DNA of 64,000 nt. Origin: Bdellovibrionales bacterium. GTDB lineage: Bacteria > Bdellovibrionota > Bdellovibrionia > Bdellovibrionales > JAGQZY01. Positions 6,038 through 30,403 of the stretch are shown piece by piece. A model generated the notes under the pieces. It saw only the letters and a list, made by a program, of their open reading frames with translations. It was not told the DNA's origin and ran no database searches. Where the stretch lies: contig CAXREJ010000053.1 of the NCBI GenBank assembly GCA_964229765.1, forward strand, positions 1,359 to 65,358, in the 5' to 3' direction. A program made the position numbers and the translations under genes. Within the stretch, counting starts at the first letter, position 1. Each line of letters opens with the position of its first letter.

Positions 6038-6304
6038 GGTTGGAACTCCTAATGTTATACAACTTTTATCCTGTTCAAGTAATTTTTTTTAAAATCCAAT
6101 CATTAAAGTGGAAAGCAGAAGTTAAACTCAGCTTGTACACGCCTTTATTTTACCAAAATAGGTAGGGATGGGTGAACTTTTTTTTATGAAAAGGTTATGC
6201 AGACCTTGTATTTTTAAAGTTTATTTTCTTAAACATTTTTTGGATGTGATAGATTTCATTTAAAAATTACAAATAAATAATATTTTTTATCACACTTTTT
6301 CAGG

Positions 6305-6340
6305 CAATATTTTTACTTTCAAACTCAAGTAAAAATATTG
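6305..6340. promoter_or_regulatory. Perfect 13-bp inverted repeat (caatatttttact / agtaaaaatattg, 10-nt spacer) in the XRE-histone divergent intergenic region; candidate operator or hairpin
   Basis: Read directly: arms 6305-6317 and 6328-6340. A second 7-bp inverted repeat is ctcaagt 6324-6330 / acttgag 6351-6357. Confidence 0.3.
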
Positions 6341-7009: not shown

Positions 7010-7243
7010 ATGGCGAAGAAAAAGAAAAAAGCAACGAAGAAGAAAGCAGCAGCCAAAAAAAAGAGCGAAATGATTGTCGTTCAAAGTAAGTTTAAAGAAG
7101 CTTTGAAAGCTCATGATGTGAATGTTGCTGCTGATGCACTAGAAGGAGCAAACGCTGTTCTTCACTGGTATATTGATCAGGCGGCTCAGAGAGCTAAAAG
7201 TAATGGACGCAAAACCGTTCGTGCTCATGATTTCATCTCTTAA
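7010..7243 (+). CDS. Histone-fold DNA-binding protein (bacterial singlet histone, HBb/Bd0055-like) with lysine-rich N-terminal tail
   Basis: 77 aa. AAGGAG sits 6 nt upstream. Tail is MAKKKKKATKKKAAAKKKSE. Core is IVVQSKFKEALKAHDVNVAADALEGANAVLHWYIDQAAQRAKSNGRKTVRAHDFIS, with the AKxxGRKTVxxxD signature of HMf-type histones. An alternative internal start at 7070 (M21) would remove the tail. Confidence 0.7.
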   Translation: MAKKKKKATKKKAAAKKKSEMIVVQSKFKEALKAHDVNVAADALEGANAVLHWYIDQAAQRAKSNGRKTVRAHDFIS

Positions 7244-7277
7244 AGATTAAAAGTCTTATTAATTTCTATGTGAATGG

Positions 7278-7375
7278 CCTGAGGGTAACAAAAAATGAGT
7301 TCTTTATTCAAAAGAACGAGAAGTTAAAATCCATAAAAGAAAAAATGACGGAGCTTATCTTTTGTTACCTTCAGG
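7278..7375 (+). repeat. Long imperfect hairpin (16-nt arms, 15/16 paired) enclosing an inner 7-bp hairpin, 35 nt downstream of the histone gene; possible terminator or processing structure
   Basis: Arms are cctgagggtaacaaaa (7278-7293) and ttttgttaccttcagg (7360-7375). The inner hairpin is gttcttt-attca-aaagaac (7299-7317). Confidence 0.4.
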
Positions 7376-7906
7376 TTAATAACGATTAAGGCGTTTTACG
7401 TCCCTTCCTTCTGTTGATAAAGCCTTATATTATAGCTTACCACTCTCACTCTTTTAAAAAAGATCCTTCGGCAAGCCTCAGGTAAAAAAACGGATGACAG
7501 ATTAAGAGTTTTATCTATTGGCGATGATCTTCTTTTCTATCCAAAGTTTAAAAAATGAAACAAAGATGTGAATTTACTAAATTCTTCGGCAAGCCTAGGG
7601 ATGGCTATGACGATTTTCTATGATCATTAAGGACTTTCAGTGGAGTCGAAAGACCTCGTAGACGTGTCCACTTGGGCGAATCGAAGACTCGATCAATTCG
7701 TTATCGGAACAAACTAAAAAAGGTTTTTTTTGTTTAAAAGGCTCTGTTTTGACTAAAAAGAAGCATTTGGTGCTTGCAAAGTGTGACTAATCAACAACAG
7801 AGCGTTGAACATCCCTGTTTTCCACTATTTGACGCGAAAGGAAATTCTGGATTAAACCGCCAGGGAAGGGTAAAAATTTCCATCAAATTCTAACGAAGAG
7901 AGAACT

Positions 7907-9253
7907 ATGTCACAAACCCAAGAGAAAAGCCTTTTTGGACATCCAATAGGACTTTACGTCCTCTTTTTTACAGAAATGTGGGAGCGATTTTCCTATTATG
8001 GAATGAGAGCTCTTTTAATTCTCTATATGACAAAAGAGTTAATTATCAATGCTCGTAACGGTGAGTACATTATGGGGTTTGAATATATAGAGGCTATGTA
8101 CAGTGGCCTTGGAGTTCAACCCTTAGCTTCCCAGATTTACGGACTCTATACTTTCTTGGTCTATTGTACGCCTTTACTGGGTGGACTCTTGGCGGATCGT
8201 TTTATCGGTGAAAAGTACTCCATCATTTTAGGGGGAGTTCTGATGACAATTGGTCACTTCCTAATGGCTTTTGAGTCTCTTTTCTTACTCGCATTGGTCT
8301 TTCTTATTTTTGGTAACGGAGCTTTTAAACCTAATATTTCAACCCAGGTGGGTGGTCTTTATCCAGAAGGTGATCCTCGTCGAGATGGTGCTTTTACTAT
8401 TTTTTATATGGGAATTAATCTTGGAGCCATATTCTCGCCCATTGTCTGCGGAACATTAGGTGAAATCTATGGTTGGCACTATGGTTTCACCGCTGCTGGT
8501 GTAGGCATGGTATTAGGGTTGATCGTCTATCTCTTTGGGCAAAAATACTTACCTAAAACCGCTTTTGAGAAAAATAAAGAAGCCAAAGTTAAGACAGCCG
8601 CTAAACCTTTGAGTAAAGGCCAATGGAATGCCATCTTAGGATTTTTTGTGCTCTCCTTAGCAAATATCGTTTTTTGGGGTGTTTTTGAACAGCAGGGAAA
8701 CACTTTACAGTTATTATCAACGGATCATACGGATTGGACAATTGGAAGTTGGACGGTTCCTTCCACATGGCTACAGTCACTGAATCCCCTTTTTATATTC
8801 ATTTTCGCACCTTTGTTAATGAGGCTGTGGGAAAAGCAAGGTGATAAGCAGTTATCAAGCATTGCTAAAATGTCTGTAGGCTGCATGCTAATGGGCTCAG
8901 GCTTTGTCTTTCTGATCTATATTACACAAGGATTTACTCCTCAAACCATGATTAGTTTCCTGTGGTTTGTTCCAATGATGTTTGTGGTAACAGTCGGTGA
9001 ATTGTTCTTTTCTCCTATAGGACTTTCTCTTGTCACAAAAATTGCGCCGCCAAGACTTGTGGGAATGATGATGGGGTGGTGGTTTTTTACGACAGGTCTT
9101 GGTAACTATTTCGGTGGTTATTTGGGCACATTCTACGCCACGATGACTAAATCAGAGTTTTTCACACTGTGCTTAGTTTTAGGTATAGCCGTTGGAATTG
9201 GAATTTTTATTTTACAAAAACCTTTGAAAAAAGCAGTAGGACACGGAGTTTAA
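7907..9253 (+). CDS. POT/PTR2-family proton-dependent di/tripeptide permease
   Basis: 448 aa polytopic protein. Motifs ERFSYYGMRALLILYM and GGLLADRFIGEKYSIILGG (PTR2 signature). Confidence 0.9.
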   Translation: MSQTQEKSLFGHPIGLYVLFFTEMWERFSYYGMRALLILYMTKELIINARNGEYIMGFEYIEAMYSGLGVQPLASQIYGLYTFLVYCTPLLGGLLADRFIGEKYSIILGGVLMTIGHFLMAFESLFLLALVFLIFGNGAFKPNISTQVGGLYPEGDPRRDGAFTIFYMGINLGAIFSPIVCGTLGEIYGWHYGFTAAGVGMVLGLIVYLFGQKYLPKTAFEKNKEAKVKTAAKPLSKGQWNAILGFFVLSLANIVFWGVFEQQGNTLQLLSTDHTDWTIGSWTVPSTWLQSLNPLFIFIFAPLLMRLWEKQGDKQLSSIAKMSVGCMLMGSGFVFLIYITQGFTPQTMISFLWFVPMMFVVTVGELFFSPIGLSLVTKIAPPRLVGMMMGWWFFTTGLGNYFGGYLGTFYATMTKSEFFTLCLVLGIAVGIGIFILQKPLKKAVGHGV

Positions 9254-15525: not shown

Positions 15526-16148
15526 TGTTTCTTTATATCATACTTTAGTTGCTAGGACTGGTTTTATTCTTTTCATATTCAATAGGAGTTGCATCAGTTT
15601 TATTGCTGGAAGGTTGGTTTTTTCTATCTAAGTATTAGAAGCATAATATTAGTAGTAGGTCTGGGAAGTACTTAATTTAATAATAAATTGTGTTAGCTAT
15701 TAATAACTAGATTATTGATGAATGCTAGTTCATATCGTGAAGTGAATAACAAAAAGATTCAGTGAGAAAATATAAATATACAATATATGTTTATGTTGAA
15801 TTCTAAAGCTGCCCATTAGAAAAATGTGTAAAATAATAAATATTTTAGCGACACTATTTTATGATCAGACATACTATAAATCATACATGAGTCTCATAAG
15901 CCTGCGCTTTTTTAAGGCTTTTCGCAATTTCTCTCAAATTTAGAACATATATTTATTTCAATAAAATTGAAAAAAGTTCAGGAAAAAATGCAATAAAAGT
16001 GACCAAAAAAGTCCGGTGTCAAATTATTAGACAGTGTGGAACAAGTGTTCTCAATAGGTTACAAGAAAATTGTTAAGGTACGGTTATTGTAATGTATACA
16101 AGTGAAAAATTAAATCGGTTAACTTACTATGTTTTTGTCAGGGGAAAC

Positions 16149-17471
16149 ATGAAGAATAACAGCGAGATATATTCCTTTAAAGGGAATGTATTTAAAATTT
16201 ATTTTTGGTGCCTTTTTGCAACCACACTTTTGGTTGCAACAAAGGGGTATGCGCAAACAGCGGAAAAAGAAGCTGGTGCTCGCTTTGATTCTTTAAAAGA
16301 ACTTCCCGTTGTTGAGGAAGAAGAGAAAAGTGAGAAGTACGATTCCTCAATTCAAAGATCCAATTTCTTAAGTCAAAAACCTCAGTATGAAAAAGAAATT
16401 GAAGAAGCTGTTAAAAACAGAAGATCTCAGTTCTTTTGGAAATTGCGAATGGATGGACAGTCTTTACAGACAGATTCTAATATACAGTCACAAATTGCTG
16501 GTGGAGCTTTTGGATTAAAATTTAACTATGAATTAGTTGAAGGTCTTCAATTCAAATCACGTGGAAATGTAAACTTTCAAACGGGAAGAACACAAGACGT
16601 ATTTGGCGATCAAGAACCAAGTTCTGGTCTTTATCCTAGAGACTTTAAAATTCACTATAGACCTTTTGAAGATTATTTAGATCTTGAAGCAGGAGTTATT
16701 AGTCAGGGTAAATTTAACGAGCCACTATTTGTATCCAGTCTACCCTTTATTGGATTTAGCGAAAATTTTAATTATGAGGTCGGTGCGGTAACTCTTCGTT
16801 TAGGGGCTCAACAGATGGTGCCAACCTCTTATACGCAATCCACTCGTGTTTCTGAAAGGGAGCAAGTTCCTCAATTTGGGACTCAAACAGTAGCGGCTAA
16901 ATGGATGATAAGTCGTAACAATTTTCTAGATGCCTCTGTGACACACTTTTCCTATAAAAACCTACCTTCTGTTGTGGCTTTTAACAGTTTTATTTATGGA
17001 AACACCGTTACTAATACAGACATTAATAATGCTGAGTTCATTTACGGATTTGATGGCTTTCTCAATCAAGTGACTTTTGAGCAAAAAATAACAAACAGTT
17101 TAAGTGCTCAGTTGCAATGGAATACGATTCAAAATAATAAAGCGCCGAGTGATTCTGGCGAGGCTCAAAGTATCAACTTGTGGTTAGCTAATGATTTTGG
17201 TCGTTGGATAGTGGCCACTCACTATAAAGATTATTTTATTGAGTCGGATGCTGTCCCCTCTTTTTATAACTCTCATTATTTGGGGCATAATAATCGCATC
17301 GGTCATTCCTATCGTATTGATGTGGAATCAAAAAAATGGGGTGTTATTTTTAGCGCTTCATACACTAAAGCGAATTTATTACAAACTGCGAATCGTCGAA
17401 TTGATGGATTACAACAAGATAATCAGCAAATTTTCTATCTAAGCGTGGAGACCCTTTATGACTTTATTTAA
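16149..17471 (+). CDS. Outer-membrane beta-barrel protein (unknown family)
   Basis: 440 aa from ATG 16149 (GGGGA upstream). Signal peptide ...LLVATKGYAQT, then a charged linker, then alternating beta-strand pattern to the C-terminal ETLYDFI. Its end overlaps the next gene by 14 nt. Confidence 0.65.
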   Translation: MKNNSEIYSFKGNVFKIYFWCLFATTLLVATKGYAQTAEKEAGARFDSLKELPVVEEEEKSEKYDSSIQRSNFLSQKPQYEKEIEEAVKNRRSQFFWKLRMDGQSLQTDSNIQSQIAGGAFGLKFNYELVEGLQFKSRGNVNFQTGRTQDVFGDQEPSSGLYPRDFKIHYRPFEDYLDLEAGVISQGKFNEPLFVSSLPFIGFSENFNYEVGAVTLRLGAQQMVPTSYTQSTRVSEREQVPQFGTQTVAAKWMISRNNFLDASVTHFSYKNLPSVVAFNSFIYGNTVTNTDINNAEFIYGFDGFLNQVTFEQKITNSLSAQLQWNTIQNNKAPSDSGEAQSINLWLANDFGRWIVATHYKDYFIESDAVPSFYNSHYLGHNNRIGHSYRIDVESKKWGVIFSASYTKANLLQTANRRIDGLQQDNQQIFYLSVETLYDFI

Positions 17472-20400
17472 GTCGTTGGTATCAATATTAACTCTGATTT
17501 CTTTGGTTGGCTGTGTTAATGCCGATCGAGAGAGTAAGCTGCAAGATCAACAGCTATCAGAATATAGTATTGAACAAAGCCTAATCGCCTTTAATAATCG
17601 CGCTATGTTTGAGGTAGGGGAGATACAACTCGAAGACGTTAAGTTTTCAGATAATAATCAAGGTGTTTTACGTCAATCCAATGAGATTCAACTTTTCTTT
17701 AAACTATGTAGTATTAGAGATCGGGCCTCTCAAGGTACGATTAGAAATGAAAGATTTCATATTAAATCAGAGTTGGGTGAAAATATCCTTTGGAAAAGAT
17801 CAGACAATAGTTCCGAGATCTCCAATCCTATTACTGTGAATAGTGGTAACTGTTTGAGATGGAGCCAAAAAGTTCCTGAGTTTGATTTTTACGCACCTTC
17901 TGTCAATATTGCACTTCACTTTGAGATTGAATCCCTTTCTGGCCAATTAGGTAAGATTGTTAAGAGAATTGGTTTTAACCCTTGGGATATGCACCGTCGA
18001 CAGAGTTTATCCAGCGGATTTTTTGATTTAACGGATTACAACCGAGCGGATTGGCATTCGGGTCAATGGGTTGTTGGCGATCAGATTGTTGATGCATTAA
18101 AAGGTGATTTGTTTGATCGGACGGCAGAACTTCGTTTTGATTCTATTTCGATTGAGCCTGTTGAGAGAACAAGTGTGAATGTCGCCAACTTTAATCGTCA
18201 AGCGGATGAGCTTTTAGATTCTGAAGAAATGGCACGTCGACGTGAAATTGAAAGATCTTTGTTAGAAGATCGCGCGGGTCTTCATATCAACGTTAATATG
18301 AATGCTCAGCCAGTGGTTTGGAATTACGATTCAGGTGGAAATAGAGATCGTACACCTATTACAAGTGGACGTTTTAAAGTTTATATGAACTTAATTGCTC
18401 GTGGAGCGGCTGATAATAACGAGAGACACTTATTAAGCTCTAATGTCACCGATATTACTGGTCGAAGTGCTTCCTTTATCTGGAGGATGAATCAGGACGG
18501 ACGCTTAATTACCAGCGTTCCTTTGATCTTAAGAAATCGAACAGAGTTTGGTCGAGTGGAGTTGCTGTTAAAAGTTGTTCCTGTGGACTCGGGACTTAGA
18601 AATGTAAAACCTTATACAGCGGTTTTTGATCTTGGTCAGTATGATCAGTGGGTGAGAAGACAAAATACCAGTTTTTCTTTTGATGAAAACTACAATCCTC
18701 TAGATCAAGTTTCTTATGATCAGTATGTGAATTCTGTTGACGGAATAGTTGATGATTTAAGAACAGTAAGAGAAATCGACCGATTTTATTTTGGTCCATT
18801 AAGAATGCGTTTCATACGCATTATGCCTGGTGAAACGGCCACAGATAGAACTTTACAGTATAGTGTTTCCACTTGTGTTGAGCATGGTCTTTATGGAAGT
18901 CGAGTTGGGCCTGGTTTACAGTTTGATATTGAAACAGAAGATAAGGGGCGAACCCACAAAATGAGAAGACAAACCAATGAAGAAGGTTGTCTTGTTTGGT
19001 TTGGATTCTTATCTCATAAGTTCTACCGCAAAGAAGTCTTACAGAAAAAGACAGCAATGGTTCGCTTTGCTGGAACAAAGAACAATGGTTCATCAAGTCC
19101 TGACAACAACATTAATCAGTGGGAAGAGACCATTAACCGGTACGAGCAAGAGTTTACTTATTACATGAACCCATGGGATGAAAAGTTCACCTTTGGTTGG
19201 GATGAGAACGAGATGCCTGATGGTTATGCTGATGAGATTGCTGAGCAAAGAAAGACAGCCCCGGTTTCTCAGTTGTTTATCGCTGACTTCAGATATGAAA
19301 CTATGGGCTTTCGCTATGCAATTGATAAATATCTCAACCTTAAAGTTAAAAAAGCGGTTCTTTTTAAAGCATTCCCTTATGTGTTGAAATACAATTCCAT
19401 TGTTTATGGTCGAATGGGAACCCAAAAGCTTCGTGATGGCGTTTATTTAATGAAAGTGGCCTTACAGAAAGATTACCTAGACCCTGCGGCGAAAGGTGTC
19501 AGAATTTACGATAGACATCTCCGTCGTCCCTATCAATTGGCAGAGTCCAATCGTCAGGAAAGTTTAACGGCCGAAGACTTAGAAGCTGCTTACGGAGCCG
19601 AGTATGTTTATGAGAGGTATGACCGTGAGTATGGTACGGTTGATGAGTTATTGCCTGAAGGTGTGGAGTCACATCCAGGGATGGGTTATTCGGATTCCGA
19701 CGATGATGTTGTTGGTGATTCCGTTGATCATCGTTTACTCACTGAAAGTGAATTAAGAGATACAAAAAAAGAATTTATATCCGTTCAAACAAAATTGGTT
19801 CGAGTTCTTGGTGGAATGATTATTACCCCCATCGAGTTTGAAATTGATGACTTGCGTTTAATGAGAATTAGGAATCAGTTTTATATTCAATTGGAAACAA
19901 TTGATGAACATAAACTCAGAATGGCTACCGTATTGGATCATGTCCTTGAAGATGTGGCTCGTGAAGGTAATCTTGAGACTGAATTTGAGCGTATATTTAC
20001 TGAGCTTGAAAGTCTTGAGTCCTTAGAAGTTGAGAGCGCTCAATTACAAGAGAGAATGAATCAGTACGACGAAACAGTGGATATGTCTGAAGCTCGTTCT
20101 GAGGTTGAAAGACTGGCTGGTTCTATTGAAGAAGGGCGTAATCGAATCCTTGGGATGTTAGGGCTTGATTCTGTTGATCGTGAAGATCAAGAGCTTTTCG
20201 AGAGAAGACGCCGTGAAATTGTAGAGAGATTTAATCGCCTTAGGCAGTACCGTCAACGTTTACAGGCTGTTGATGGGGATGATTATTTAGCGGCCTTTAG
20301 GAACTCTAAAAGAGAGCAAATTAATAGTGTTCTTAGAGCTCTTCAATATGAAGACTCTGTAAGTATGATTGATACAAATCAGATTGACGAAGAGTACAAT

Positions 20401-22725
20401 CAAGAAGATGGGGAAGGTCAAAGAGAGCAAGGTTTTGTCGATGATCCTATTCAAAGATTATTCTTTTCAAGACAAGGAACTTCTTCTGATCGAATTATGG
20501 CTGAACTGGATTATCGTATCGAGGTGGCAAGGCAGAGACTCGCTCAAGCGGAAGAAAATGGCCGATCCGATGATGTGGGTCTTTATCGTCAACTTATTGA
20601 GAACTTAGAAACTTTAAAGGTGGCCGACTTTACTGTTAGCCCTTTAACGCCAAGCTTTGATTTTGAACTAGTGGTGAATGAAGGGGAACATAATCCCGAT
20701 CTGCCCGAGGATGATGGTTTGTCTGGTTTGCCAGCAAGAACTTTTGTAGGTCCTTTGACTTTTGTTTTTAATACCAATGGTTCTTCATTGAGACCCACAG
20801 ACCGTTTGAATGAAGCTTATTGTCGTACCTCATTTTGTGAGGCGCCTGAGGAAATGATTAGAAGAGGTATTCCACCAACAGATGTTGAAACGGCTACACA
20901 AGTTCATACCGATGGAGAATTGCCGCTTACTTCGCAGCCTATTTATGCGAGTGGCGATTCTATCAATGCCAACTATGAGAACAATAAATACTACGGTTAT
21001 TTAAAAGATTATCATAATAAAACCGTTGATATGCTGATTGAAGAGAAAAAAGATATTGAAGAGAGAGAGTACCGTAAGATGGAAGAAGCCTCTCAAATCA
21101 TTAATTATACAAAAACCATGAAGCTCCGTTACGTTCTATTGAATGATAATGAGCGCTCACGTCTTAAGGGTATAGATCATAATTGTGCTCAAACGACTGA
21201 TATTGATCGAATCACTGAGTGTTTTACTGATATTCTTTCTGGAAGTGATATTTTAAATAAAGGAAGAATGTTTGAGCAATTGAATCACAGACAGACTTAT
21301 TATCCTGAGTTTGGTGATGCTCAAGAAAATAATTTCTCCAATAGAGCTTACTATAATTTAGCCGGTGATCAGGAAATCACGGAACAGAATATTTTAGATA
21401 TTATGGAAAAGGGATGGCGTAGTCCTGATATCGACCCCATTATGGTTCGTCGTTTTATGCATAGAATGTGCTTTGTGCTTGCTGAAAACTTTTTCACACC
21501 GGAGTATTTTGAAAAATCAGCGCCAACAATATGGGATACGTTTTCTCAAAGAGAAACGACCATGAATATGAGAGGTTTGATTCACCTTGAAAAAATATGT
21601 CATCGCTATGTTGGTAATATGTATGGCTACTTCAGGCAAAGAGACCGCTACGAGAGAGGTCAGCCATTTATCAACCTGGATCGTTTTTCATTTGATCATG
21701 ATGATGCTGTAAGACCACAGAATATGAGATTTTCTCCCATAGTTATTGAAAGAAAAGTGAGAGCTTATTCGACCACGGATCGTTATGTTTACCGTGGTGG
21801 TAAATCACTTAATATTAATTTATCGGCTAGCTTTAACTTATCGAGTAGTAACGGGATTAAGGTTGTCACTTCAGCAAACTTTAAACCTTGGGACTGGGTC
21901 TCTGATGTGACTGGAGCTCTTTTAGGTCGAGTGGCTAGAAATATCATTGGTGGTGTTGGAATCAGCCAGTCCAACTCGATGGATGAGTCAGCGGGACGCT
22001 CACAAGGTGTTACGGTGAGTTCTGGTACGTTTTTAGTCAGCCAACAGGCAACACTTGATATTGAGCTTGGTGAGTATGAAAGATGTTTAGTTGTAAGACT
22101 TCATCCTAAAATCATTAAAGATTTTATGGACTCTGATTTTATTAAAGAGAGTTTTTTAGATGAAAATATTGATCGCAACAATGATGGTGAGCCTGAGGAG
22201 TTAAGTGATATCTTATCTCAAGGTATGTTAATTTGTTCTGGGCAAATCCGTAGTAACCGTTTGCCGATCAAAGAAAAGTATTATTACTTCACTCAGCATT
22301 TTACTGAAGGTGATATGCTCGATACTGCGGATCTTCATAACCACCCTTGGCTGTTACAGTTAAGAGGTTATAGGGATTTTCAAGTTTTCACTTCAATGAT
22401 TGGAGCTCGTGAAGTTCAATATATTGATACTAATAACTGGGCCGGAGAAGTTATGGGGCGAACTATGACAGATGCTGCGGCTTTAGCGAATGGTAACCTT
22501 TCTGAAATGGGAGGAAGTGATACTGACAATTACAATGCGCAATTTCAAATTGTGCATCAGTCAGAAGATATAAACTGGCCACTGGAAGAGCTAGGAAGAA
22601 CTTATTTTGAAGTTCTGCCCACTTTCCCGGGACTCTATACTTACATGAATGAAGATGGAGAAGATGTAAGTAATTGGCCTTATGATAGTACAGATCCAGG
22701 GCGATCTTTTGCACCTAATGAGTGA
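17458..22725 (+). CDS. Giant lipoprotein (1755 aa) of unknown function with an acidic coiled-coil central region
   Basis: MTLFKSLVSILTLISLVGC (lipobox LVGC). The reading frame is uninterrupted for 5.3 kb. The central Glu/Arg-rich segment is predicted coiled coil (about 19850-20600). No family recognised. Confidence 0.85.
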   Translation: MTLFKSLVSILTLISLVGCVNADRESKLQDQQLSEYSIEQSLIAFNNRAMFEVGEIQLEDVKFSDNNQGVLRQSNEIQLFFKLCSIRDRASQGTIRNERFHIKSELGENILWKRSDNSSEISNPITVNSGNCLRWSQKVPEFDFYAPSVNIALHFEIESLSGQLGKIVKRIGFNPWDMHRRQSLSSGFFDLTDYNRADWHSGQWVVGDQIVDALKGDLFDRTAELRFDSISIEPVERTSVNVANFNRQADELLDSEEMARRREIERSLLEDRAGLHINVNMNAQPVVWNYDSGGNRDRTPITSGRFKVYMNLIARGAADNNERHLLSSNVTDITGRSASFIWRMNQDGRLITSVPLILRNRTEFGRVELLLKVVPVDSGLRNVKPYTAVFDLGQYDQWVRRQNTSFSFDENYNPLDQVSYDQYVNSVDGIVDDLRTVREIDRFYFGPLRMRFIRIMPGETATDRTLQYSVSTCVEHGLYGSRVGPGLQFDIETEDKGRTHKMRRQTNEEGCLVWFGFLSHKFYRKEVLQKKTAMVRFAGTKNNGSSSPDNNINQWEETINRYEQEFTYYMNPWDEKFTFGWDENEMPDGYADEIAEQRKTAPVSQLFIADFRYETMGFRYAIDKYLNLKVKKAVLFKAFPYVLKYNSIVYGRMGTQKLRDGVYLMKVALQKDYLDPAAKGVRIYDRHLRRPYQLAESNRQESLTAEDLEAAYGAEYVYERYDREYGTVDELLPEGVESHPGMGYSDSDDDVVGDSVDHRLLTESELRDTKKEFISVQTKLVRVLGGMIITPIEFEIDDLRLMRIRNQFYIQLETIDEHKLRMATVLDHVLEDVAREGNLETEFERIFTELESLESLEVESAQLQERMNQYDETVDMSEARSEVERLAGSIEEGRNRILGMLGLDSVDREDQELFERRRREIVERFNRLRQYRQRLQAVDGDDYLAAFRNSKREQINSVLRALQYEDSVSMIDTNQIDEEYNQEDGEGQREQGFVDDPIQRLFFSRQGTSSDRIMAELDYRIEVARQRLAQAEENGRSDDVGLYRQLIENLETLKVADFTVSPLTPSFDFELVVNEGEHNPDLPEDDGLSGLPARTFVGPLTFVFNTNGSSLRPTDRLNEAYCRTSFCEAPEEMIRRGIPPTDVETATQVHTDGELPLTSQPIYASGDSINANYENNKYYGYLKDYHNKTVDMLIEEKKDIEEREYRKMEEASQIINYTKTMKLRYVLLNDNERSRLKGIDHNCAQTTDIDRITECFTDILSGSDILNKGRMFEQLNHRQTYYPEFGDAQENNFSNRAYYNLAGDQEITEQNILDIMEKGWRSPDIDPIMVRRFMHRMCFVLAENFFTPEYFEKSAPTIWDTFSQRETTMNMRGLIHLEKICHRYVGNMYGYFRQRDRYERGQPFINLDRFSFDHDDAVRPQNMRFSPIVIERKVRAYSTTDRYVYRGGKSLNINLSASFNLSSSNGIKVVTSANFKPWDWVSDVTGALLGRVARNIIGGVGISQSNSMDESAGRSQGVTVSSGTFLVSQQATLDIELGEYERCLVVRLHPKIIKDFMDSDFIKESFLDENIDRNNDGEPEELSDILSQGMLICSGQIRSNRLPIKEKYYYFTQHFTEGDMLDTADLHNHPWLLQLRGYRDFQVFTSMIGAREVQYIDTNNWAGEVMGRTMTDAAALANGNLSEMGGSDTDNYNAQFQIVHQSEDINWPLEELGRTYFEVLPTFPGLYTYMNEDGEDVSNWPYDSTDPGRSFAPNE

Positions 22726-23830
22726 TCAAAAGATCTTCTACCTAACGACTAACCCTGGCCTGGAGTCTGTGGCCCACTTGGAGCTTTGTAAAAAGTGGGT
22801 CCAGGCTGCAGATTTTTTTAATCTTCCATCTTATCCAGATGTAAAATTACTTAAAGGTGGACTTGAGTTTACAGCCAGTCTCCCAATGGTTTTATTTCTT
22901 AATCGCAACTTAAAAACAAGCACTCGCATACTTCTTAGACTTAAAACATTCTCGGCCAAAAATGAAAATGAGTTCACTAAAGAAATGGAATCCGTGCCGT
23001 GGAAAAGTTTTTTTAATGCCAATGAAAGTGTCAACTTTAAGTTCCAGTCTAAATCTTCTAAGTTGTCCCATAGTAAGCAAATCACAAGGGTTTTAGAGAA
23101 GGTTTTGAAAAAACATAAAGTCAAAGTTCAAAAAGGACAACCTCAACTCTATATCAGGATTTTCCGTGATCAGTGCACATTGAGTATTGATACAACGGGT
23201 GAAGCCAGTTTCTTTAGAAAAGAAGCTGGTTCAATAGCATCTTTGCGTTCAAGTTTAGCTTCAGGACTCTTGCAGATTTTATTTCAAGGAATAGAGTCTG
23301 ATATAGAACTGATTGATCCTATGTGCGGGGCCGGTACATTTTTATCTGAGTCTTTATCTATGGATCATTCTCTTGCTCGTTCCTTTTTTCTCGAATCCTT
23401 TCCATTAATGAAAGATTCTTTAACAGAAATGCCGGTGCTTGAAGAAAAGAATTTAGTGAAAAAAACTATTGGTTTTGATTTTCATGAGAAAGCATTACAT
23501 GTTGCTGCCGAAAATTTGAAAAACTTTAAAAGTGATTATTTAGAAATTAGTAAGGCCGATCTGTTTTCTAAAAGCGATGGGCTGGTTTCTCCTTCTGGAA
23601 TGAAAAGAGTGGTGGTGGTCAATCCTCCTTGGGGTAAACGCTTACACCTCCAGGGGCAGGGTGATGTCTTGGAGACTTTGTATCATAAATATAAACCGGA
23701 CCGCATTGGTCTTTTGATGCCAGCTCGTTGGAAGACAGTTTCAATTCCCTTGGAGAAAGTCAGGGATATTCCTATCAATAATTCTGGCGTTGAAAATCGT
23801 TTTCTTGTTTTTGCAAAATCCGGAGTTTAA
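22718..23830 (+). CDS. THUMP-domain class I SAM-dependent (RNA) methyltransferase, COG0116/RlmL-N-like
   Basis: MSDQKIFYLTTNPGLESVAHLEL N-terminus. Motif I is DPMCGAGTF and motif IV is VVVNPPWG. ATG 22718 overlaps the upstream stop (ATGAGTGA). Confidence 0.75.
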   Translation: MSDQKIFYLTTNPGLESVAHLELCKKWVQAADFFNLPSYPDVKLLKGGLEFTASLPMVLFLNRNLKTSTRILLRLKTFSAKNENEFTKEMESVPWKSFFNANESVNFKFQSKSSKLSHSKQITRVLEKVLKKHKVKVQKGQPQLYIRIFRDQCTLSIDTTGEASFFRKEAGSIASLRSSLASGLLQILFQGIESDIELIDPMCGAGTFLSESLSMDHSLARSFFLESFPLMKDSLTEMPVLEEKNLVKKTIGFDFHEKALHVAAENLKNFKSDYLEISKADLFSKSDGLVSPSGMKRVVVVNPPWGKRLHLQGQGDVLETLYHKYKPDRIGLLMPARWKTVSIPLEKVRDIPINNSGVENRFLVFAKSGV

Positions 23831-23939: not shown

Positions 23940-24830
23940 ATGAAAAAAATCATATTGTTTTTTGCTGTCCTAATTATGTTGTCTTTTAATGCTTTTTCAG
24001 AAGATGGAATCAGTCCTCTGAAGACTCAAGAATACTTTCAGAGAAGAATTAAAGAAGAAAGAACTGTTAAAGACATGCCTTTTTCTGTTTCAGCTCATAA
24101 ACCTTTTTATATCTTACCGGCCTCGTATAATTCTAATCCTTCAAAAGGAAGTCTCAGTAATTTAACTCAAGTCGACCATTTAGAGGCTAAATTTCAGTTT
24201 AGTTTTAAGTTGAATGTGATTGACTCATTTTGGGATAACCATATGACTCTCATGTTTGCTTATACAAACCTTTCCTTTTGGCAACTGTATAACAAAAAGA
24301 ACTCGGCTCCATTCAGGGAAACCAATCATGAGCCTGAATTATTTCTTGAATATCATCCTGAGAGTTTAGACAGTACGGATGAGTGGGTCTATTATCGTTT
24401 GGGATTTGTGCATCAGTCCAATGGTCAAGATGTGCCAGAGTCACGCAGTTGGAATAGAATCTATTTGCAAGGACTCTTCAATTTTAAATACCTTTCTGTA
24501 CAATTAAAAGCTTGGAAAAGAATTCCTGAAAGTGAAAAAAGCACACCACTGGCTGTCGGTGGAGACGATAACCCTGATATTCATTTGTATTTAGGTAATT
24601 TTGAACTTCTACTTATTCAAAAGTGGGGATCGAGTACAATGACTGCCCTTTGGCGTAACAATCTTCGGTCCCAAAATAGGGGGTCTATTGAGTTAGGTTG
24701 GAGTTTCCCTCTCAATGAGAACTACAAAGGGTATGTGCAGTTTTATAATGGATATGGAGAGAGCCTTATTGATTATAATTATCCCGTGGCTAGGATTGGT
24801 GCTGGCTTTTTGATGGCTGATTGGTTGTAA
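23940..24830 (+). CDS. pldA: Outer-membrane phospholipase A (OMPLA)
   Basis: 296 aa with signal peptide. Catalytic block GFVHQSNGQ...SRSWNRIY and C-terminal aromatic residue. Confidence 0.85.
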   Translation: MKKIILFFAVLIMLSFNAFSEDGISPLKTQEYFQRRIKEERTVKDMPFSVSAHKPFYILPASYNSNPSKGSLSNLTQVDHLEAKFQFSFKLNVIDSFWDNHMTLMFAYTNLSFWQLYNKKNSAPFRETNHEPELFLEYHPESLDSTDEWVYYRLGFVHQSNGQDVPESRSWNRIYLQGLFNFKYLSVQLKAWKRIPESEKSTPLAVGGDDNPDIHLYLGNFELLLIQKWGSSTMTALWRNNLRSQNRGSIELGWSFPLNENYKGYVQFYNGYGESLIDYNYPVARIGAGFLMADWL

Positions 24831-25214: not shown

Positions 25215-28115
25215 ATGCTCAAAGGCAAAATTATTTTTCGCTTTGTCGTAGTCAGTTTTTTACTTGTATTTGCATTTAATAACTGTACGAAGGATGCGGA
25301 TTTTGACAATTCTGATAGTTCAAGCGCAAGTTCATTTGCGGCGGACTATTTATTAGGACTCATTGATGATGCGGTGGAAACGGAAGCTCAGTTACGTGAG
25401 CAGGGGACTCCAGAAGCTATTGCACAGGCCAATGAAATTCGTTTGTATATTGATATGATTGAACAGCTTATTGCTGTTGATGGACGCGGTCTATCTATTG
25501 GCTCGGCTCAAGTTCTTGATGCTCGAGACTATTTATTAAATGCTCATTTAATGGGGCGCGATATGCTTATTGAGTATAACTTCAATGCAGCCATTGCCGC
25601 GCTTCAAGCTGAAGATGAAAGACTCTCAAATTTAATTGCTGAGTTAGAAATTAAGTTTGATGCTTCACTGGCAGACTTAGAGACTCGCTTGAGAACTGAG
25701 ATGCAGGCTTCTGATGCTGAGATCCTGGCTCAATTGAACGCATTAAGAGATCGTTTTAATGCTTTTGAAACTCAGGTTAATAATAAGTTTATTGAAGTCG
25801 ATGGAAGACTTGTTAATCTTGAAACCATCACCACAAATCTTCAAACTCGTATTGATGAGATTGATGCGAATATTGTAATTATTCAAAATAATATTACTAA
25901 TATTCAAGATAGCAGTGAGTCCGCGATGAAAGCTCTTTGGGAAGCTCTTGAGGGAGTGAAAAAAGATCTTATGAATGAAATCGTTGCTGTTAAAGAAGCA
26001 CAAAATGAAATGAAAGAAAAGTTAGCTGAACAACAAAAAGCTTTTGAAAGCTATGTGGCGGATCAGTCAAAATTGGCTGAAGTTCAAGGGCGCATGTGTA
26101 AGCTTGATGCCAGTGGAGAATTGTCTGTTGGTCAAACGGCTTGTGATGGTTCATCGACTGAAGATGATGTTCTTGACGGTTCTTGTTGTATGACTGCTGA
26201 TAACTTAGATTGCGATATGATGTTTCCTGATGAAACTGATTCAGCGAAGTTAGCTAAAACTCAGTGTAACTCGTTTATCGTGACTTTAAGAAATCGCGAT
26301 GCTCAGATTAAAGAATTGGCGGAAGCTGATGCTGAGCAGAAGAAAGATATTGAACTGTTAATGGCAAGAGTGGATGACCTTGAGGAGGTTGTGAAAAACC
26401 TTTCTGAGGAAGTTAAAGGTCTTGTTGCCGATATGGAAAGTTTAAAATCTAAACTGGCTGATATTGATGATAGACTTCTTATTGTTGAGTTTAAAGCTTC
26501 AAGAGCAGAGGCTGGTGCAACTTTAAATGAAATGTCTGATCTTTATTTAGCTTGGATCACTCGTCGTAAAGCGGATGTGAGAAATCGTTTTTGTCACCAT
26601 AATGCAAAAGTCGCTTACAATAGAAGTGACTATGAAGTGGCGAAACAAAATCATGTTTACTGTCATGAGAGATTGGCTTGGTTGAATCAAGCACAAGAAC
26701 TTGTTCAATTAGCTAAAGCTTATACTAATGGTGTTTTATCAACAAATGTTGATCAGAATTGTAGTGCTAATATCTCAGGTCGTAATGCTGAATCTTTATC
26801 AGTAAATGATCTTTCTGACATGAATGTGGCTCAAGAGGTCATTAAGAAATGTACCAGTGGGCAAGCTTTAACTAAAGCTTATCTATTAAGTATTATTAAG
26901 CTTCATAATAAAATTGGTCCTGATTTCAGAACGGCTGAGTACATGGCTAAAAAAGCTAAAATTGCTCAACTCCTTTATTTTGGTAGCGAAGTGCATTTAG
27001 CTTCATCTGCTGCTATTCAAGCTTTTGAAAATGTGGATCCTACTGCGGATCATTTAAAAGACACTCCTTATGGAAAAATTGAGCGTGTTTTTAAGCGCAG
27101 ATATGTAGAGACTCGTTTAAGAGTTTCTGGAAAGTATCCAGAAGATCCTTCACAGTTTAAGGCTAATATCTCTGGATTCAATGTTGTTTACACTCATGCT
27201 GAAATCAATGGGGCTGCTGATGCTTACTTAAAAAGAGTTAAGGCTTTAGAGATTGAAGGTACTTGTGGTGGTCAATGTGGATTTAAAGTTGTTGGAAGAA
27301 ACAAGGTTGCTCGTATTGGATCTCGTTACAGTTATCCTCAAGATTCAAAAACCAAGTGTCCTATCTTTAACGACATCGTTATGATTCCAAGTCAAGATGG
27401 AAAGCACTACGCTTACCGTTTAAACTACTCTCGTTATCAAGGTGCTACTGAGCAAATCTTACCTTACTGGACATGGAACTCGAATCATCATCCAATTGCT
27501 GAAAGTGCTGCGGATGTTGCTGCCGGTAAATTCAGACAGTGTGGTTATAGAGTTCGTAACACAGTACACAGATTTGGTATTCCTGATACAAAATTGCGTG
27601 GACGCTTAGCACTTCGCTATGGGAAGCCTTATGCGAAAACACATGGTCTTCCACAGTGTATGAGATTCCACTTCACTTGTCGTCTTTGGGATGGTCCAGA
27701 TGGCAATGGTGAGTGGGTCAGTCCTAATCCGAATGCCAACATCATGCATTATTTGAGTGGTTACAGTAACGCCAAGGTTGATTCTTTCTGTAAGACTTCT
27801 GGAGCTTCTTATGTACCAAAAACTCGTCAGCTTTCTCAAGATGAAAAAGCAACAATGCATTACTACAAAGGTGTTCAAGATGCTGGATCAATAGCCATGG
27901 CTAACGCTGTAAACTCTAATACGACTCAGTTAACAGAGGACTATTGGATGACTCGTGATGTGGCTGTTGCTTATGGAAGTGGAAATAAAACGACTTCAGT
28001 GGCCACTCCTTTTTATGGTAAATCATCTTCTCATGGACAGGCCTTCTTTAGAAAACTGTTCAAGATGACTGATTTTGCCAATATTGATGTGCAACAATGT
28101 TATGATCCTCAATAA
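25215..28115 (+). CDS. Large exported coiled-coil protein (966 aa) with Cys-rich globular C-terminal half; possible non-canonical lipoprotein
   Basis: Signal peptide FRFVVVSFLLVFAFNNC (lipobox-like, non-canonical). N-terminal 450 aa are heptad-rich (LETRLRTEMQ..., IDEIDANIVIIQNNITNIQ). The C-terminal half has many Cys. GGGGGA RBS. Confidence 0.8.
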   Translation: MLKGKIIFRFVVVSFLLVFAFNNCTKDADFDNSDSSSASSFAADYLLGLIDDAVETEAQLREQGTPEAIAQANEIRLYIDMIEQLIAVDGRGLSIGSAQVLDARDYLLNAHLMGRDMLIEYNFNAAIAALQAEDERLSNLIAELEIKFDASLADLETRLRTEMQASDAEILAQLNALRDRFNAFETQVNNKFIEVDGRLVNLETITTNLQTRIDEIDANIVIIQNNITNIQDSSESAMKALWEALEGVKKDLMNEIVAVKEAQNEMKEKLAEQQKAFESYVADQSKLAEVQGRMCKLDASGELSVGQTACDGSSTEDDVLDGSCCMTADNLDCDMMFPDETDSAKLAKTQCNSFIVTLRNRDAQIKELAEADAEQKKDIELLMARVDDLEEVVKNLSEEVKGLVADMESLKSKLADIDDRLLIVEFKASRAEAGATLNEMSDLYLAWITRRKADVRNRFCHHNAKVAYNRSDYEVAKQNHVYCHERLAWLNQAQELVQLAKAYTNGVLSTNVDQNCSANISGRNAESLSVNDLSDMNVAQEVIKKCTSGQALTKAYLLSIIKLHNKIGPDFRTAEYMAKKAKIAQLLYFGSEVHLASSAAIQAFENVDPTADHLKDTPYGKIERVFKRRYVETRLRVSGKYPEDPSQFKANISGFNVVYTHAEINGAADAYLKRVKALEIEGTCGGQCGFKVVGRNKVARIGSRYSYPQDSKTKCPIFNDIVMIPSQDGKHYAYRLNYSRYQGATEQILPYWTWNSNHHPIAESAADVAAGKFRQCGYRVRNTVHRFGIPDTKLRGRLALRYGKPYAKTHGLPQCMRFHFTCRLWDGPDGNGEWVSPNPNANIMHYLSGYSNAKVDSFCKTSGASYVPKTRQLSQDEKATMHYYKGVQDAGSIAMANAVNSNTTQLTEDYWMTRDVAVAYGSGNKTTSVATPFYGKSSSHGQAFFRKLFKMTDFANIDVQQCYDPQ

Positions 28116-28121
28116 AAACAA

Positions 28122-29216
28122 ATGTCTTTGTTGATTAATCGAAATCCCCATGTAAGCATTTTATACATGGGGATTTTTTTATTTATTTTAATGATCGCAA
28201 TACCTAGTCAAACTTTTGCTGCTGAAAAATGTGCAGTGATGAAGAAAAACTCTGTCGCATTGAAAGCTAAAACAAAAGTAAAGAAAAGAGTGCTTCGCAA
28301 TGAGGTGTTTCCTTTTTTGGGTTTAAGTAAAAATGGTGTGGCTGTAAAAACCAAAATTAATGGACAGGCTTATTGGCTTCTTTCTAAGCTCGTTAGAGTG
28401 GAAGAAGGAGAACTTTGTGCACTCAATAAACTTGAAAGCAATAATAAAAGTGTCGATCCACTGGATTCGCTTCTTGATTCATCGACTGATCAATATGATT
28501 CTCTTCCTGAGGATTCAAGTTTAGATAAAATGACAAAGTCATCAGAGAGCAAAGAGTTCAAAGCTGTCTCTGAAGTAAAAAGCGGATGGACTTATGGTGT
28601 TGAAGCTGGATACTTAATTTCTAATTCAAAAAAACCCTTTGAGAATTTGATCACTCCAACTCCTCCAAGTAATGTGGATGTGAATGAAGATACTTATGAT
28701 AGTCCTTTTGTTGATTCCGTTTCTGGTGGCTCGGGCTTTGACTTTTCAGGTTTTGTGCAGATGCCACTTTCTCCGTTATTTTCTTTGAAGATGCAGCTAG
28801 GTTATATGCAAAGGGAATTAAGTTACGTCTATAGAACCAATCCTAATAATACCGATCAATCCTTTGTGACCTATAATCAACTGCCGCAGTCTGAGAACAC
28901 AGTCTCATTTCAATCGGTTTATTTAACTCTTATGCCAAAATTTTCTTTCTCACTTTTTAGTGTTCCTATGGATTTTGGTCTAGGAATTAGAGGGCATTAT
29001 TATTTGCAACAATTTAGGCAAGAGCGCAGAACGGCCCCGCAGAAGTTGACTCCTTATTTTGTGGATTCGGGATACAGTGCTTTTGAAATTGAAATTCTAC
29101 CCCGTTTAGAGGTCAAGTTTCAGCCCATCTACGTTTATTTACAATTGACCAATCAGCTGACCGGAGCCTCGCATTTTAATATGGATCCTCACCTTGGGGT
29201 CGGGATCGAGTTCTAA
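28122..29216 (+). CDS. Outer-membrane beta-barrel protein with N-terminal SH3b-like segment (tentative)
   Basis: 364 aa. Signal peptide ...IPSQTFAAEK. The C-terminal 200 aa have an alternating pattern ending GVGIEF (terminal Phe). It starts 6 nt after the upstream stop. Confidence 0.6.
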   Translation: MSLLINRNPHVSILYMGIFLFILMIAIPSQTFAAEKCAVMKKNSVALKAKTKVKKRVLRNEVFPFLGLSKNGVAVKTKINGQAYWLLSKLVRVEEGELCALNKLESNNKSVDPLDSLLDSSTDQYDSLPEDSSLDKMTKSSESKEFKAVSEVKSGWTYGVEAGYLISNSKKPFENLITPTPPSNVDVNEDTYDSPFVDSVSGGSGFDFSGFVQMPLSPLFSLKMQLGYMQRELSYVYRTNPNNTDQSFVTYNQLPQSENTVSFQSVYLTLMPKFSFSLFSVPMDFGLGIRGHYYLQQFRQERRTAPQKLTPYFVDSGYSAFEIEILPRLEVKFQPIYVYLQLTNQLTGASHFNMDPHLGVGIEF

Positions 29217-29449: not shown

Positions 29450-30403
29450 GTGAAATATAAAGACCTATTCATTTTTTCAATTTATGTATCAACTACTTTT
29501 ATTTCCAGTCCTGTTTGGTCAGCCATGCATTGTAGTGATTTGCTCACTCGTGCCCAAGAAAATGAGAGTATTCATTCGGAAATAGACAACCTAAATCAGG
29601 CGATACTTGAAATCCGTCCTCTCCTGGAAAGACACCAACTCACTATAGTGCCGATGACCTCTTTGCGTTCTCAAGTGGGTGAGAGATCATCTCGACCCTA
29701 TTTACATAAGCTTCTCAGTTGGGCTGATCGATTGAGAACAAGAATGGGAGGCCGCCCCTTGAATATGGAGGGGCACAATCAGGAGCCCGTCTCTGATCAA
29801 GTTTTAATGGCTCCTCTATTGAATGACTCCCCATTAATGCAAGAAAGAACAGATCAAGATGCCGTTGTGCCGGCGCGAGCCCATCGCGAGCCACTCACTT
29901 ATGAACAATTGAAGCGTCGCCAGGTCACAGAGGTCGAAGATCGTTGTTTTGCTGGAAGTTGCTCGGTTTTGACTCCCAATGGAGAGAGACCTATTTCCGA
30001 GCTGAGAGTCGGTGATTCTGTATTTTCTGTGGATGTTAACACTGGGCAAGTGGTCACTAATCGTATTGCAAAAGTTCACTATACTGAAAATGGACAGGCT
30101 GTCCATGCGCGAATAGAGGGCGATAGAGCGATGTGGGTAAATCCTCTTCATCGTTTCTATACCCCTGACAGCAAAGGGTGGTTACCCTTGTTACAAGTTA
30201 ATATCTATAGCCAATCTGTAATGGCTGTGGAAATAGGGCGCGATAGTGCTCATTCTGGCTTTAACAATCAAAGCTTGGAGGTTGAATCTCAAAGTGTGCT
30301 TGAGTGGATGCCTGTTTACAGTTTAGAGATGGCCGAGCCACCTTATAACTTTATTGTTGAAGGGATTTTGGTTCACAATGGTCCCTTGCCCAAAATCATA
30401 TAG
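29450..30403 (+). CDS. Secreted protein with C-terminal Hint / bacterial intein-like (BIL) autoprocessing domain
   Basis: GTG start, signal peptide ...SSPVWSA. Hint blocks are CFAGSCSVLTPNGERPISELRVGDSVFS (aa 166 on), NPLHRFYT and VYSLEMAEPPYNFIVEGILVHN. Only GPLPKII follows. Confidence 0.75.
   Translation: MKYKDLFIFSIYVSTTFISSPVWSAMHCSDLLTRAQENESIHSEIDNLNQAILEIRPLLERHQLTIVPMTSLRSQVGERSSRPYLHKLLSWADRLRTRMGGRPLNMEGHNQEPVSDQVLMAPLLNDSPLMQERTDQDAVVPARAHREPLTYEQLKRRQVTEVEDRCFAGSCSVLTPNGERPISELRVGDSVFSVDVNTGQVVTNRIAKVHYTENGQAVHARIEGDRAMWVNPLHRFYTPDSKGWLPLLQVNIYSQSVMAVEIGRDSAHSGFNNQSLEVESQSVLEWMPVYSLEMAEPPYNFIVEGILVHNGPLPKII

Follow-up and report, generated by a model that had tools for sequence, protein, structure and literature searches.

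What do two overlapping genes of a predatory bacterium specify, one encoding an outer-membrane barrel and the other a giant lipoprotein without a recognised domain: two neighbours sharing an operon, an exporter with its cargo, or the two halves of a single outer-membrane complex? The pair lies in a stretch of 64,000 nucleotides (nt) of contig CAXREJ010000053.1 from a Bdellovibrionales bacterium, referred to here in its whole length as the window, in which the gene of a barrel protein of 440 amino acids (aa) (16149..17471, forward strand) runs into the gene of a lipoprotein of 1755 aa and about 190 kDa (17458..22725, forward strand). Recognition, breaching and resealing of the prey outer membrane by Bdellovibrio-like predators still lack an explanation for the most part, and a role has been assigned to few of the conserved components of the predator's outer membrane. 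A preceding reading of the bare letters, called here the sequence-only reading, had judged the genome to be predator-like, in agreement with its placement in the Bdellovibrionales, and had interpreted the pair by analogy with Slam-type translocons. Our analysis leads to a different answer. The barrel and the lipoprotein almost certainly work together, and the interpretation we favour, at roughly even confidence, is that they form an obligate 1:1 outer-membrane complex specific to Bdellovibrionales-type predators, with the barrel serving as anchor or portal.

The argument starts at the junction of the two genes. They share 14 nt (17458..17471, forward strand), an overlap already seen in the sequence-only reading, in which lipoprotein codons 1-5 read ATG ACT TTA TTT AA. 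and the barrel gene ends as ..T GAC TTT ATT TAA. The Shine-Dalgarno sequence of the lipoprotein gene, GGAG (17447..17450, forward strand), is located 7 nt ahead of its ATG, inside the V-E-T codons of the last barrel strand, and every overlapped junction that was read carries GGAGAC or a one-base variant of it, followed by 5-7 nt and then ATG. With the Shine-Dalgarno sequence placed in conserved V-E-T codons and the ATG placed in Y-D, the end of the barrel gene is a dual-coding stretch.

This geometry recurs far from the window. In a genome and assembly set of 18 distinct loci (the window and L001-L018, of which L010 duplicates L001), extending to barrel identities of 24-34% and giant-lipoprotein identities of 25-31%, the ATG of the giant gene lies 13 nt before the barrel stop in all 18, within the pattern ...GGAGAC-N5-6-T ATG Annnnnn TAA/TAG, and close homologues of the two proteins sit on the same contigs. 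A metagenome scan added 31 further loci, 21 of them with enough upstream sequence, and 20 of these 21 have a barrel-family open reading frame (ORF) overlapping the start of the giant gene (hmmsearch E 1e-38 to 1e-93), by 14 nt in 13 loci, 17 nt in four, 11 nt in one and 4 nt (ATGA) in two. Overall, of 39 loci that allow a judgement, 38 place the lipoprotein start within the final codons of the barrel gene, and in 31 the overlap is exactly 14 nt. The sole uncoupled one, L044 (a TARA_B100000749 scaffold), is divergent and has a lipoprotein homologue shortened to about 1055 aa; its barrel gene (1504-2478, minus strand) and lipoprotein gene (5805-9002, plus strand) are about 3.3 kb apart. The constraint is visible in the lipoprotein itself, as residue 5 is K, N, R or S in 93 of 115 full-length family members, a bias to be expected if nt 12-14 hold the TAA or TAG stop of the upstream gene.

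Furthermore, the two proteins diverge in parallel: across 15 loci, their identities to the window pair fall together from 69% down to 24% (r = 0.93). The window holds a single copy of the pair, and no family barrel was seen without a lipoprotein nearby, so that the co-occurrence to which the sequence-only reading had pointed as a check is found throughout, with 38 of 39 evaluable loci overlapped and correlated identities. Recurrence at this frequency down to 24% identity is far more than chance would be expected to give. From the geometry of the junction we infer that ribosomes finishing the barrel gene would pass on to the lipoprotein gene, and the comparison of loci supports a pair that is dedicated, co-inherited and translationally coupled.

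Which kind of barrel is coupled in this way? The ORF is open from 16092, and translation starts at 16149 and not at 16092, as judged from AGGGGA ahead of this ATG and from the homologues, which begin there too. The protein comprises a signal peptide (aa 1-35, cleaved approximately between KGYA and QT), a variable acidic linker (aa 36-61), a conserved N-terminal segment of 31 aa (aa 62-92, nt 16332-16424) and a barrel domain (aa 93-435, nt 16425-17453), and it ends in ...VETLYDFI. The charged stretch between the signal peptide and strand 1 thus measures about 58 aa, of which only the last 31 are conserved, and is considerably shorter than the periplasmic segment of roughly 100 aa that had been proposed from the letters. 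The AlphaFold2 model, built with 28 homologues, contains 16 antiparallel strands (mean predicted local distance difference test score (pLDDT) 82, predicted template modelling score 0.77), joined by short turns at one end of the barrel and by long loops at the opposite end, and together with its Foldseek matches it describes a closed 16-strand barrel of porin type. The signal-peptide-bearing barrel with the C-terminus YDFI recognised in the sequence-only reading is therefore also what the model predicts.

Searching the Protein Data Bank (PDB) with the barrel model by Foldseek gave 343 matches at E<=1e-3, and the 50 listed are all porin-type. The best match among those listed is OmpM1 (E 3e-13), and further 16-18-strand matches include PorB, OprD/Occ, AlgE, chitoporin and OmpF-type porins, with no stand-out among them. 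At the sequence level, the barrel reached the threshold of no Pfam or NCBIfam family (window copy, 28 close members and distant members), neither the window barrel nor the 28 members matched a curated porin family, and the family profile found no match among PDB sequences. The closest approach was a sub-threshold match to Porin_4 in the barrel of L017 (E 9e-4, 19.6 bits against a cut-off of 27). The profile and fold comparison by which the sequence-only reading wanted the barrel to be placed thus gave a divided answer: the porin fold was matched, yet no curated family was, and the barrel is co-conserved with the lipoprotein.

The conservation pattern of the barrel departs from that of ordinary porins. 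The homologue search returned 35 close barrel homologues. Mean column identity is 0.73 in the loops opposite the termini, 0.63 in the strands and 0.57 in the periplasmic turns, and 42 of the 96 positions conserved to at least 90% fall in loops predicted to be extracellular or lumenal, with loop and turn sides assigned from the topology of the AlphaFold2 model. The external loops of porins are usually their most variable part. Loops that are better conserved than strands, the reverse of the usual porin pattern, would fit either binding of a conserved partner or folding into the lumen; the model suggests these two explanations without telling them apart.

The simplest alternative, that a nutrient porin and an unrelated large lipoprotein share an operon, can be judged at this point. 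The fold of the barrel, which matches general as well as specific porins, and the sub-threshold Porin_4 match in one distant barrel (L017) are in its favour. However, two unrelated neighbours would have had to keep an overlapping start in 38 of 39 loci across deep divergence and to diverge in parallel (r = 0.93), the loops of such a porin should be its most variable part and are conserved here, and no family barrel was seen apart from a nearby lipoprotein. We disfavour this explanation and consider it highly improbable.

The lipoprotein begins with MTLFKSLVSILTLISLVGC, which contains the lipobox LISLVGC with Cys19; signal peptide and lipobox L-V-G-C, with Val at +2, occupy 17458..17514 (forward strand), so that a 1755-aa LVGC lipoprotein overlapping the barrel gene, as described in the sequence-only reading, is indeed present. 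About 115 family members have a lipobox-type N-terminus, and none of them has Asp at +2. If the rules of Escherichia coli apply, and only then, the absence of Asp at +2 would suggest that the acylated protein is carried to the outer membrane by Lol export. The conservation profile delimits a conserved N-terminal region (17515..19527, forward strand; aa 20-690), in which two related modules can probably be distinguished, both carrying an NPWD motif and a pair of Cys (C84/C132...NPWD174-177 in module 1 and C473/C511...NPWD571-574 in module 2); self-similarity within aa 20-690 is weak (hhalign E 0.03-0.09), and a BLAST cross-match between modules occurs in L016. A variable acidic linker (aa 691-765) separates this region from a small, very conserved domain (19753..19962, forward strand; aa 766-835) containing ...LVRVLGGMIITPIEFE.DDLRLMRIRNQF..., where mean column identity in the conservation profile reaches 0.89 over aa 781-810. 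In short relatives, the small domain directly abuts the C-terminal region, as in L015, where a match to aa 772-820 is followed by one to aa 1083 onward.

Between these conserved parts lies a variable, acidic, helical and coiled-coil-like centre (19963..20607, forward strand; aa 836-1050). The sequence-only reading had described an acidic coiled-coil centre, and its acidic and helical character is upheld, with 51 D/E against 29 K/R and long helices in AlphaFold2; but the centre is poorly conserved, is modelled at low-to-moderate confidence (pLDDT about 50-70) and is missing in the distant short relatives L015 and L016, so it can be dispensed with. Members of the family measure from about 1170 to 2137 aa, and most of this variation falls in the central region. 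The largest member seen, at 2137 aa, is encoded in L018 (6001-12414), where the 14-nt overlap with a 437-aa barrel gene is kept.

The family hallmark is the conserved C-terminal region (20608..22722, forward strand; aa 1051-1755). The AlphaFold2 model of aa 578-1755 is poor overall (mean pLDDT 52), with a better-defined helical subdomain at aa 1187-1387 (pLDDT 70-93). The most conserved motif of the family (22273..22389, forward strand; aa 1606-1644) reads EKYYYFTQHFTEGDMLDTADLHNHPWLLQLRGYRDFQVF, also written EKYYYFTQHFTEGDMLDTADLHNHPWLLQLRG.RDF, and E1606, Q1613, N1628, R1636, G1637 and F1644 are invariant in a 32-sequence wide alignment at 22-31% identity. Moreover, the 12 Cys of the mature lipoprotein form six pairs, most of them invariant, as would suit an oxidising environment outside the cytoplasm.

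We found no Pfam or NCBIfam family at threshold for the lipoprotein in the window copy, in 25 giants or in distant members. Sub-threshold matches in the scans of the two families comprise DUF6861 in four of the 25 giants (E 0.012) and SabA, Tim17 and DUF456 at noise level. Run against PDB sequences, the giant family profile retrieved only a designed helical protein (E 0.066), on the coiled coil, and the modelled part has no fold neighbour in PDB or BFVD, the best Foldseek match in PDB having E 1.5. The sequence-only reading had recognised no known domain in the giant protein, and the Pfam, NCBIfam and PDB profile searches, all without a threshold match for either, say the same; the searches support the assignment of the lipoprotein to an undescribed family.

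Within the C-terminal region, the AlphaFold2 model contains a long beta hairpin (21739..22101, forward strand) with strands of about 30 residues each (aa 1428-1458 and 1521-1548) and a hydrophobic, Gly/Ala-rich tip (aa 1478-1509, nt 21889-21984). Confidence drops along the hairpin, from a pLDDT of 70-90 near its base to less than 40 in the tip. In the wide family, hydrophobic residues alternate with S/T/N/Q/G in strand 1, which carries zero charge, and the tip loop measures 11-64 aa and usually consists of 50-77% G/A/V/I/L/F/M/W, often in a glycine-zipper-like arrangement, e.g., AGGAIVGAAAGAGVGAVPGYVAGAGFGILAG; some members, e.g., P0171 and P0202, have a short or non-hydrophobic tip. The alternating, amphipathic, S/T-rich strand pattern and the hydrophobic tip are thus present, and on the strength of sequence and model the hairpin may span a membrane.

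A hairpin of this kind invites the idea of a membrane-attacking device, in which hairpin and tip would insert into the prey outer membrane and the barrel would hold, export or neutralise the lipoprotein. An amphipathic hairpin of about 30 residues per strand with a Gly/Ala-rich loop does resemble the stems of beta-pore-forming toxins and fusion loops, and the family is restricted to predators. On the other side, neither sequence nor fold links the lipoprotein to the aerolysin/ETX-MTX2, MACPF/CDC, leukocidin or gasdermin families: none of these Pfam families was matched in the 25 giants, and in Foldseek the pleurotolysin and gasdermin pores gave E>5 and a probability of about 0 against the lipoprotein model, itself of low confidence. 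The tip is modelled at pLDDT below 40, it is short or non-hydrophobic in P0171 and P0202, and a lipid anchor together with a permanent genomic partner would be unusual for a released toxin. We regard such a device as quite unlikely. A more far-reaching version, for which we see a similarly slim chance, is a new outer-membrane machine of predatory Bdellovibrionota whose barrel deploys the lipoprotein through or beside itself and whose hairpin, with its glycine-zipper tip, inserts into the prey outer membrane. If true, it would represent a new way for lipoproteins to reach the surface, joined to a contact-dependent device that penetrates or fuses membranes, and it would be a candidate for the machinery that opens the prey entry port.

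How widely is the pair distributed? An exhaustive search with a profile of the C-terminal 705 aa yielded 446 cluster representatives, 190 of them at E<=1e-30; their length is 1200-2100 aa in nearly every case, and the match is always at the C-terminal end. The organism-named members are all Bdellovibrionales, Bdellovibrionaceae, Pseudobdellovibrionaceae or Bdellovibrio metagenome-assembled genomes (MAGs), a statement based on 13 of 13 genome loci and on all named clusters among the 30 that were looked up. The cluster look-ups contained MAG names only and no orthologue from a cultured strain, and a word-indexed homologue search with the wide alignment returned the close family alone. The pair is thus a lineage-wide core pair, with 446 cluster representatives and without annotated function or described domain.

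These observations can be combined into a mechanism for the obligate complex we favour. With the ribosome-binding site and start of the lipoprotein gene inside the barrel end, ribosomes would re-initiate after the barrel stop and supply the two proteins in a fixed ratio. By general rules, both would be exported via Sec, the barrel would be inserted by BAM, and the lipoprotein, acylated and lacking Asp at +2, would reach the outer membrane. There the barrel would act as the dedicated membrane partner, its conserved long loops offering a docking or threading site, and the amphipathic hairpin of the lipoprotein with its Gly-rich tip could enter the barrel or the bilayer. The complex would then work in the manner of the plug-and-barrel or threaded pairs LptD-LptE and RcsF-OmpA/C/F, while being unrelated to either of these or to Slam.

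Several points count against this interpretation. The argument for physical contact of the two proteins is an indirect one, in that coupling and synteny prove co-expression and not a physical complex. The hairpin picture rests on sequence patterns and on a model that is confident only in part (aa 578-1755, mean pLDDT 52). The conserved loops of the barrel, for their part, might just as well be folded into the lumen and serve a transport function. In L044, moreover, the barrel gene lies on the other strand and 3.3 kb away, which makes the overlap not indispensable.

The sequence-only reading had proposed a translocon and its cargo, in which the barrel would export the giant protein to the surface as an adhesin or prey-contact factor and would be needed for delivery only. 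A barrel gene beside a lipobox gene, as found at about half of the Slam loci (PMC5449769), the strict co-conservation of the pair, the conserved loops on the predicted outward side of the barrel, Cys pairs and an acidic variable centre compatible with an exposed protein, and a predatory host lineage are all in line with this proposal. However, Slam's defining features (TPR, DUF560, 14 strands and TbpB-like domain) are all absent, and a protein of 190 kDa with six disulfides could hardly pass through the lumen of a 16-strand barrel of porin size unless it is unfolded. Furthermore, a start kept inside the partner gene throughout the family points to fixed stoichiometry, not to a catalytic exporter, and the locus is embedded in housekeeping synteny. 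We therefore find the translocon explanation unlikely, and the family-wide overlap suits a fixed-ratio complex better than a translocon handling cargo. What stands of the Slam analogy is the dedicated pair; kinship does not, and beyond gene adjacency none of the features that define Slam was recovered. Surface display of the lipoprotein as such is a plausible hypothesis.

For the fixed-ratio complex, the consequences depend on where it is exposed. A surface-exposed complex would be a prime candidate for prey contact or invasion, and a periplasmic one would be a new kind of envelope scaffold. Independently of its role, the near-invariant 14-nt overlap with a Shine-Dalgarno sequence in a conserved beta-strand represents a natural example of dual-coding constraint combined with translational coupling.

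Is the expression of the pair also controlled in a conserved manner? Upstream of the barrel gene, an imperfect palindrome, TGTCAAA-TTA-TTAGACA (16017..16033, forward strand), lies about 115 nt ahead of the barrel ATG as a candidate operator and recurs as TGTCwAA..TTAGACA in 10 loci with a protein identity of just 49-69%. A conserved 5' leader follows (16070..16148, forward strand), with a -35/-10-like pair, TTGTTA at 16070 and TATACA at 16095 (forward strand), the Shine-Dalgarno sequence AGGGGA of the barrel gene, and a 7-codon upstream ORF, MFLSGET* (16129-16152, forward strand), whose TGA overlaps the barrel ATG as ATGA. This upstream ORF has a GTG start in L011, and an extra T breaks its frame in L008 and L009. 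In the same 10 loci, hardly any change is seen over the approximately 95 nt ahead of the barrel ATG, and all 10 of the 10 subclade loci share the final 20 nt of the leader, TTTTTGTCAGGGGAAACATG, without a difference, which makes the leader end better conserved than the coding sequence. The leader is not conserved in distant loci; the 620-nt upstream region had no Rfam match in a search for riboswitches and RNA families, and the leader hairpin is no more stable than shuffled sequence. Judged by its sequence, the whole upstream stretch (16017-16148) probably combines a promoter and an operator with a leader for translation, all of them conserved.

Downstream, the 3' end of the lipoprotein gene is overlapped by a gene for a THUMP and UPF0020 (RlmL/Trm14-like) RNA methyltransferase (22682..23830, forward strand; Pfam/NCBIfam), by 44 nt when counted from the first ATG and by 8 nt from the likely real start, ATG 22718. 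This neighbour is common to L002-L006, L008, L013 and L014 and absent from the distant loci. The methyltransferase is probably co-transcribed with the pair; being a cytoplasmic enzyme, it is not counted in the envelope system, and the coupling of a cytoplasmic RNA enzyme to an envelope operon is odd in itself.

The window shows further genes of interest around the pair. Just after the methyltransferase gene lies one for an outer-membrane phospholipase A (PLA1/OMPLA, 23940-24830, Pfam E 6.6e-90), and a DedA/VTT protein is encoded nearby. A second combination of a big protein with a barrel is present at 25215-29216, in a segment that the syntenic loci L002 and L003 lack: a 966-aa coiled-coil-rich protein with weak coiled-coil Pfam matches only (25215-28115) is followed after 6 nt by a 364-aa OMP_b-brl_2-like barrel (28122-29216, E 6.5e-6). 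The same inserted segment also encodes a 317-aa protein (29450-30403) whose weak match to a Hint domain (intein/hedgehog-type; E 8e-6) stays short of the Pfam cut-off.

In the distant loci, a convergent gene for a Kdo transferase (WaaA/KdtA, PF04413) is found directly downstream of the pair in 10 of 10 loci checked (L015, L017, L018, L021, L023, L024, L026, L033, L035 and L043), with a cation-efflux gene often next in line. On the upstream side, the window, L017 and L033 have FabMG and a TroA-like gene, and in L018 an LptD gene, separate from the barrel, lies 4 kb upstream. The Kdo transferase and LptD neighbours could reflect a frozen gene order or a link to lipopolysaccharide (LPS) and the envelope. 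A conserved housekeeping and envelope backbone of this kind speaks for old vertical inheritance and not for a mobile or accessory island; for the question of a role in predation it is neutral. On these grounds, the pair would be a vertically inherited core component of the envelope, for which prey contact and envelope maintenance are both possible.

The neighbourhood brings up the last alternative, an envelope maintenance machine that would handle lipids or LPS or tether the outer membrane, with the lipoprotein spanning the periplasm from the barrel. It draws on the envelope-related neighbours (FabMG, Kdo transferase in 10 of 10 distant loci, LptD in L018, OMPLA and DedA/VTT), on OmpM1, the best listed fold match of the barrel and an outer-membrane attachment porin, and on the long helical stalk of many members. 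These neighbours are, however, convergent or divergent and thus not co-transcribed with the pair, and their order may be frozen. The coiled coil is dispensable in distant members, and the OmpM1 match is no better than those to many generic porins. Families with such tasks, or of other giant envelope proteins, were also not recovered: no AsmA/DUF490 or bacterial alpha-2-macroglobulin (MG/A2M) family of Pfam or NCBIfam reached E<=1 in the window lipoprotein or in 25 members, scans of both proteins gave no match to TamB, Mla, Lpp/Pal or SLH families, and the LptD and LptE families (PF04453/PF03968) had no match in the window proteins, 28 barrels and 25 giants. We judge a maintenance machine to be improbable, and continue with the dedicated 1:1 complex as the interpretation to be compared with known systems.

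Among these, Slam, the surface lipoprotein assembly modulator of type XI secretion, is the system to which the pair had been likened. Slam consists of an N-terminal periplasmic TPR domain and a C-terminal 14-strand DUF560 barrel, and its substrates contain an eight-strand TbpB-like barrel domain (PMC5449769). The likeness lies in a barrel gene adjacent to a lipobox gene and in a barrel dedicated to one lipoprotein. Unlike Slam, the barrel described here has just about 58 aa between signal peptide and strand 1 and 16 strands in its AlphaFold2 model instead of 14, and the gene overlap of the pair is near-invariant. No TPR family and no DUF560 match was found at E<=1 in the window barrel or 28 members. 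A TbpB-like domain was likewise absent, with no Pfam match at E<=1 in 25 giants and none in the modelled aa 578-1755, the N-terminal 577 aa being covered by sequence only. On these counts (no TPR, no DUF560, no TbpB-like domain and 16 strands) we find no kinship with Slam.

The barrel resembles 16-18-strand porins (OmpM1, PorB, OmpF/C, OprD/Occ, AlgE and chitoporin) in fold, strand number and the pattern of turns and loops, and differs from them in having no sequence-level membership, in its conserved loops, in its lipoprotein partner and in the conserved 31-aa N-terminal segment. A 16-strand barrel is also known from the same kind of predator, PopA (Bd0427) of Bdellovibrio, which is pentameric, porin-like and plugged by a helical domain; the part of that report consulted describes no lipoprotein partner (PMC12228718). 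PopA is not among the 50 best PDB fold matches listed for our barrel, and a relationship was dropped.

With respect to mechanism, the nearest parallels are stable barrels with a lodged or threaded lipoprotein, LptD-LptE and RcsF-OmpA/C/F, of which RcsF uses 16-strand porins. In LptD, a jellyroll domain accompanies a barrel of 26 strands; LptE and RcsF are small proteins, and the genes of these partners do not overlap. Unlike these systems, the pair has no homology to LptD-LptE or RcsF, and threading or plugging is proposed for it by analogy. In Myxococcus, TraA and TraB, a surface receptor and an outer-membrane barrel that are encoded together, mediate outer-membrane exchange; TraB has an OmpA domain, and TraA has PA14, Cys-rich repeats and a MYXO-CTERM tag. 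The likeness, offered as a lead, is that of a large surface-associated, lipid-anchored protein encoded together with a barrel; no sequence relationship was detected, and the OmpA, PA14, Cys-rich-repeat and MYXO-CTERM features were not found in the Pfam scans.

Literature searches found no description of the barrel-lipoprotein pair. With no curated family, solved structure or paper found, the two families and the wiring of their overlap appear to be undescribed, although the pairing of a barrel with a lipoprotein is in itself a known theme. Together, the pair is a concrete and testable candidate for a core machine in the outer membrane of bacterial predators, with a function that we infer in its entirety, and whether it is exposed at the surface or confined to the periplasm, it would add to the known systems a barrel-lipoprotein architecture unrelated to Slam, LptDE, SusCD and BAM.

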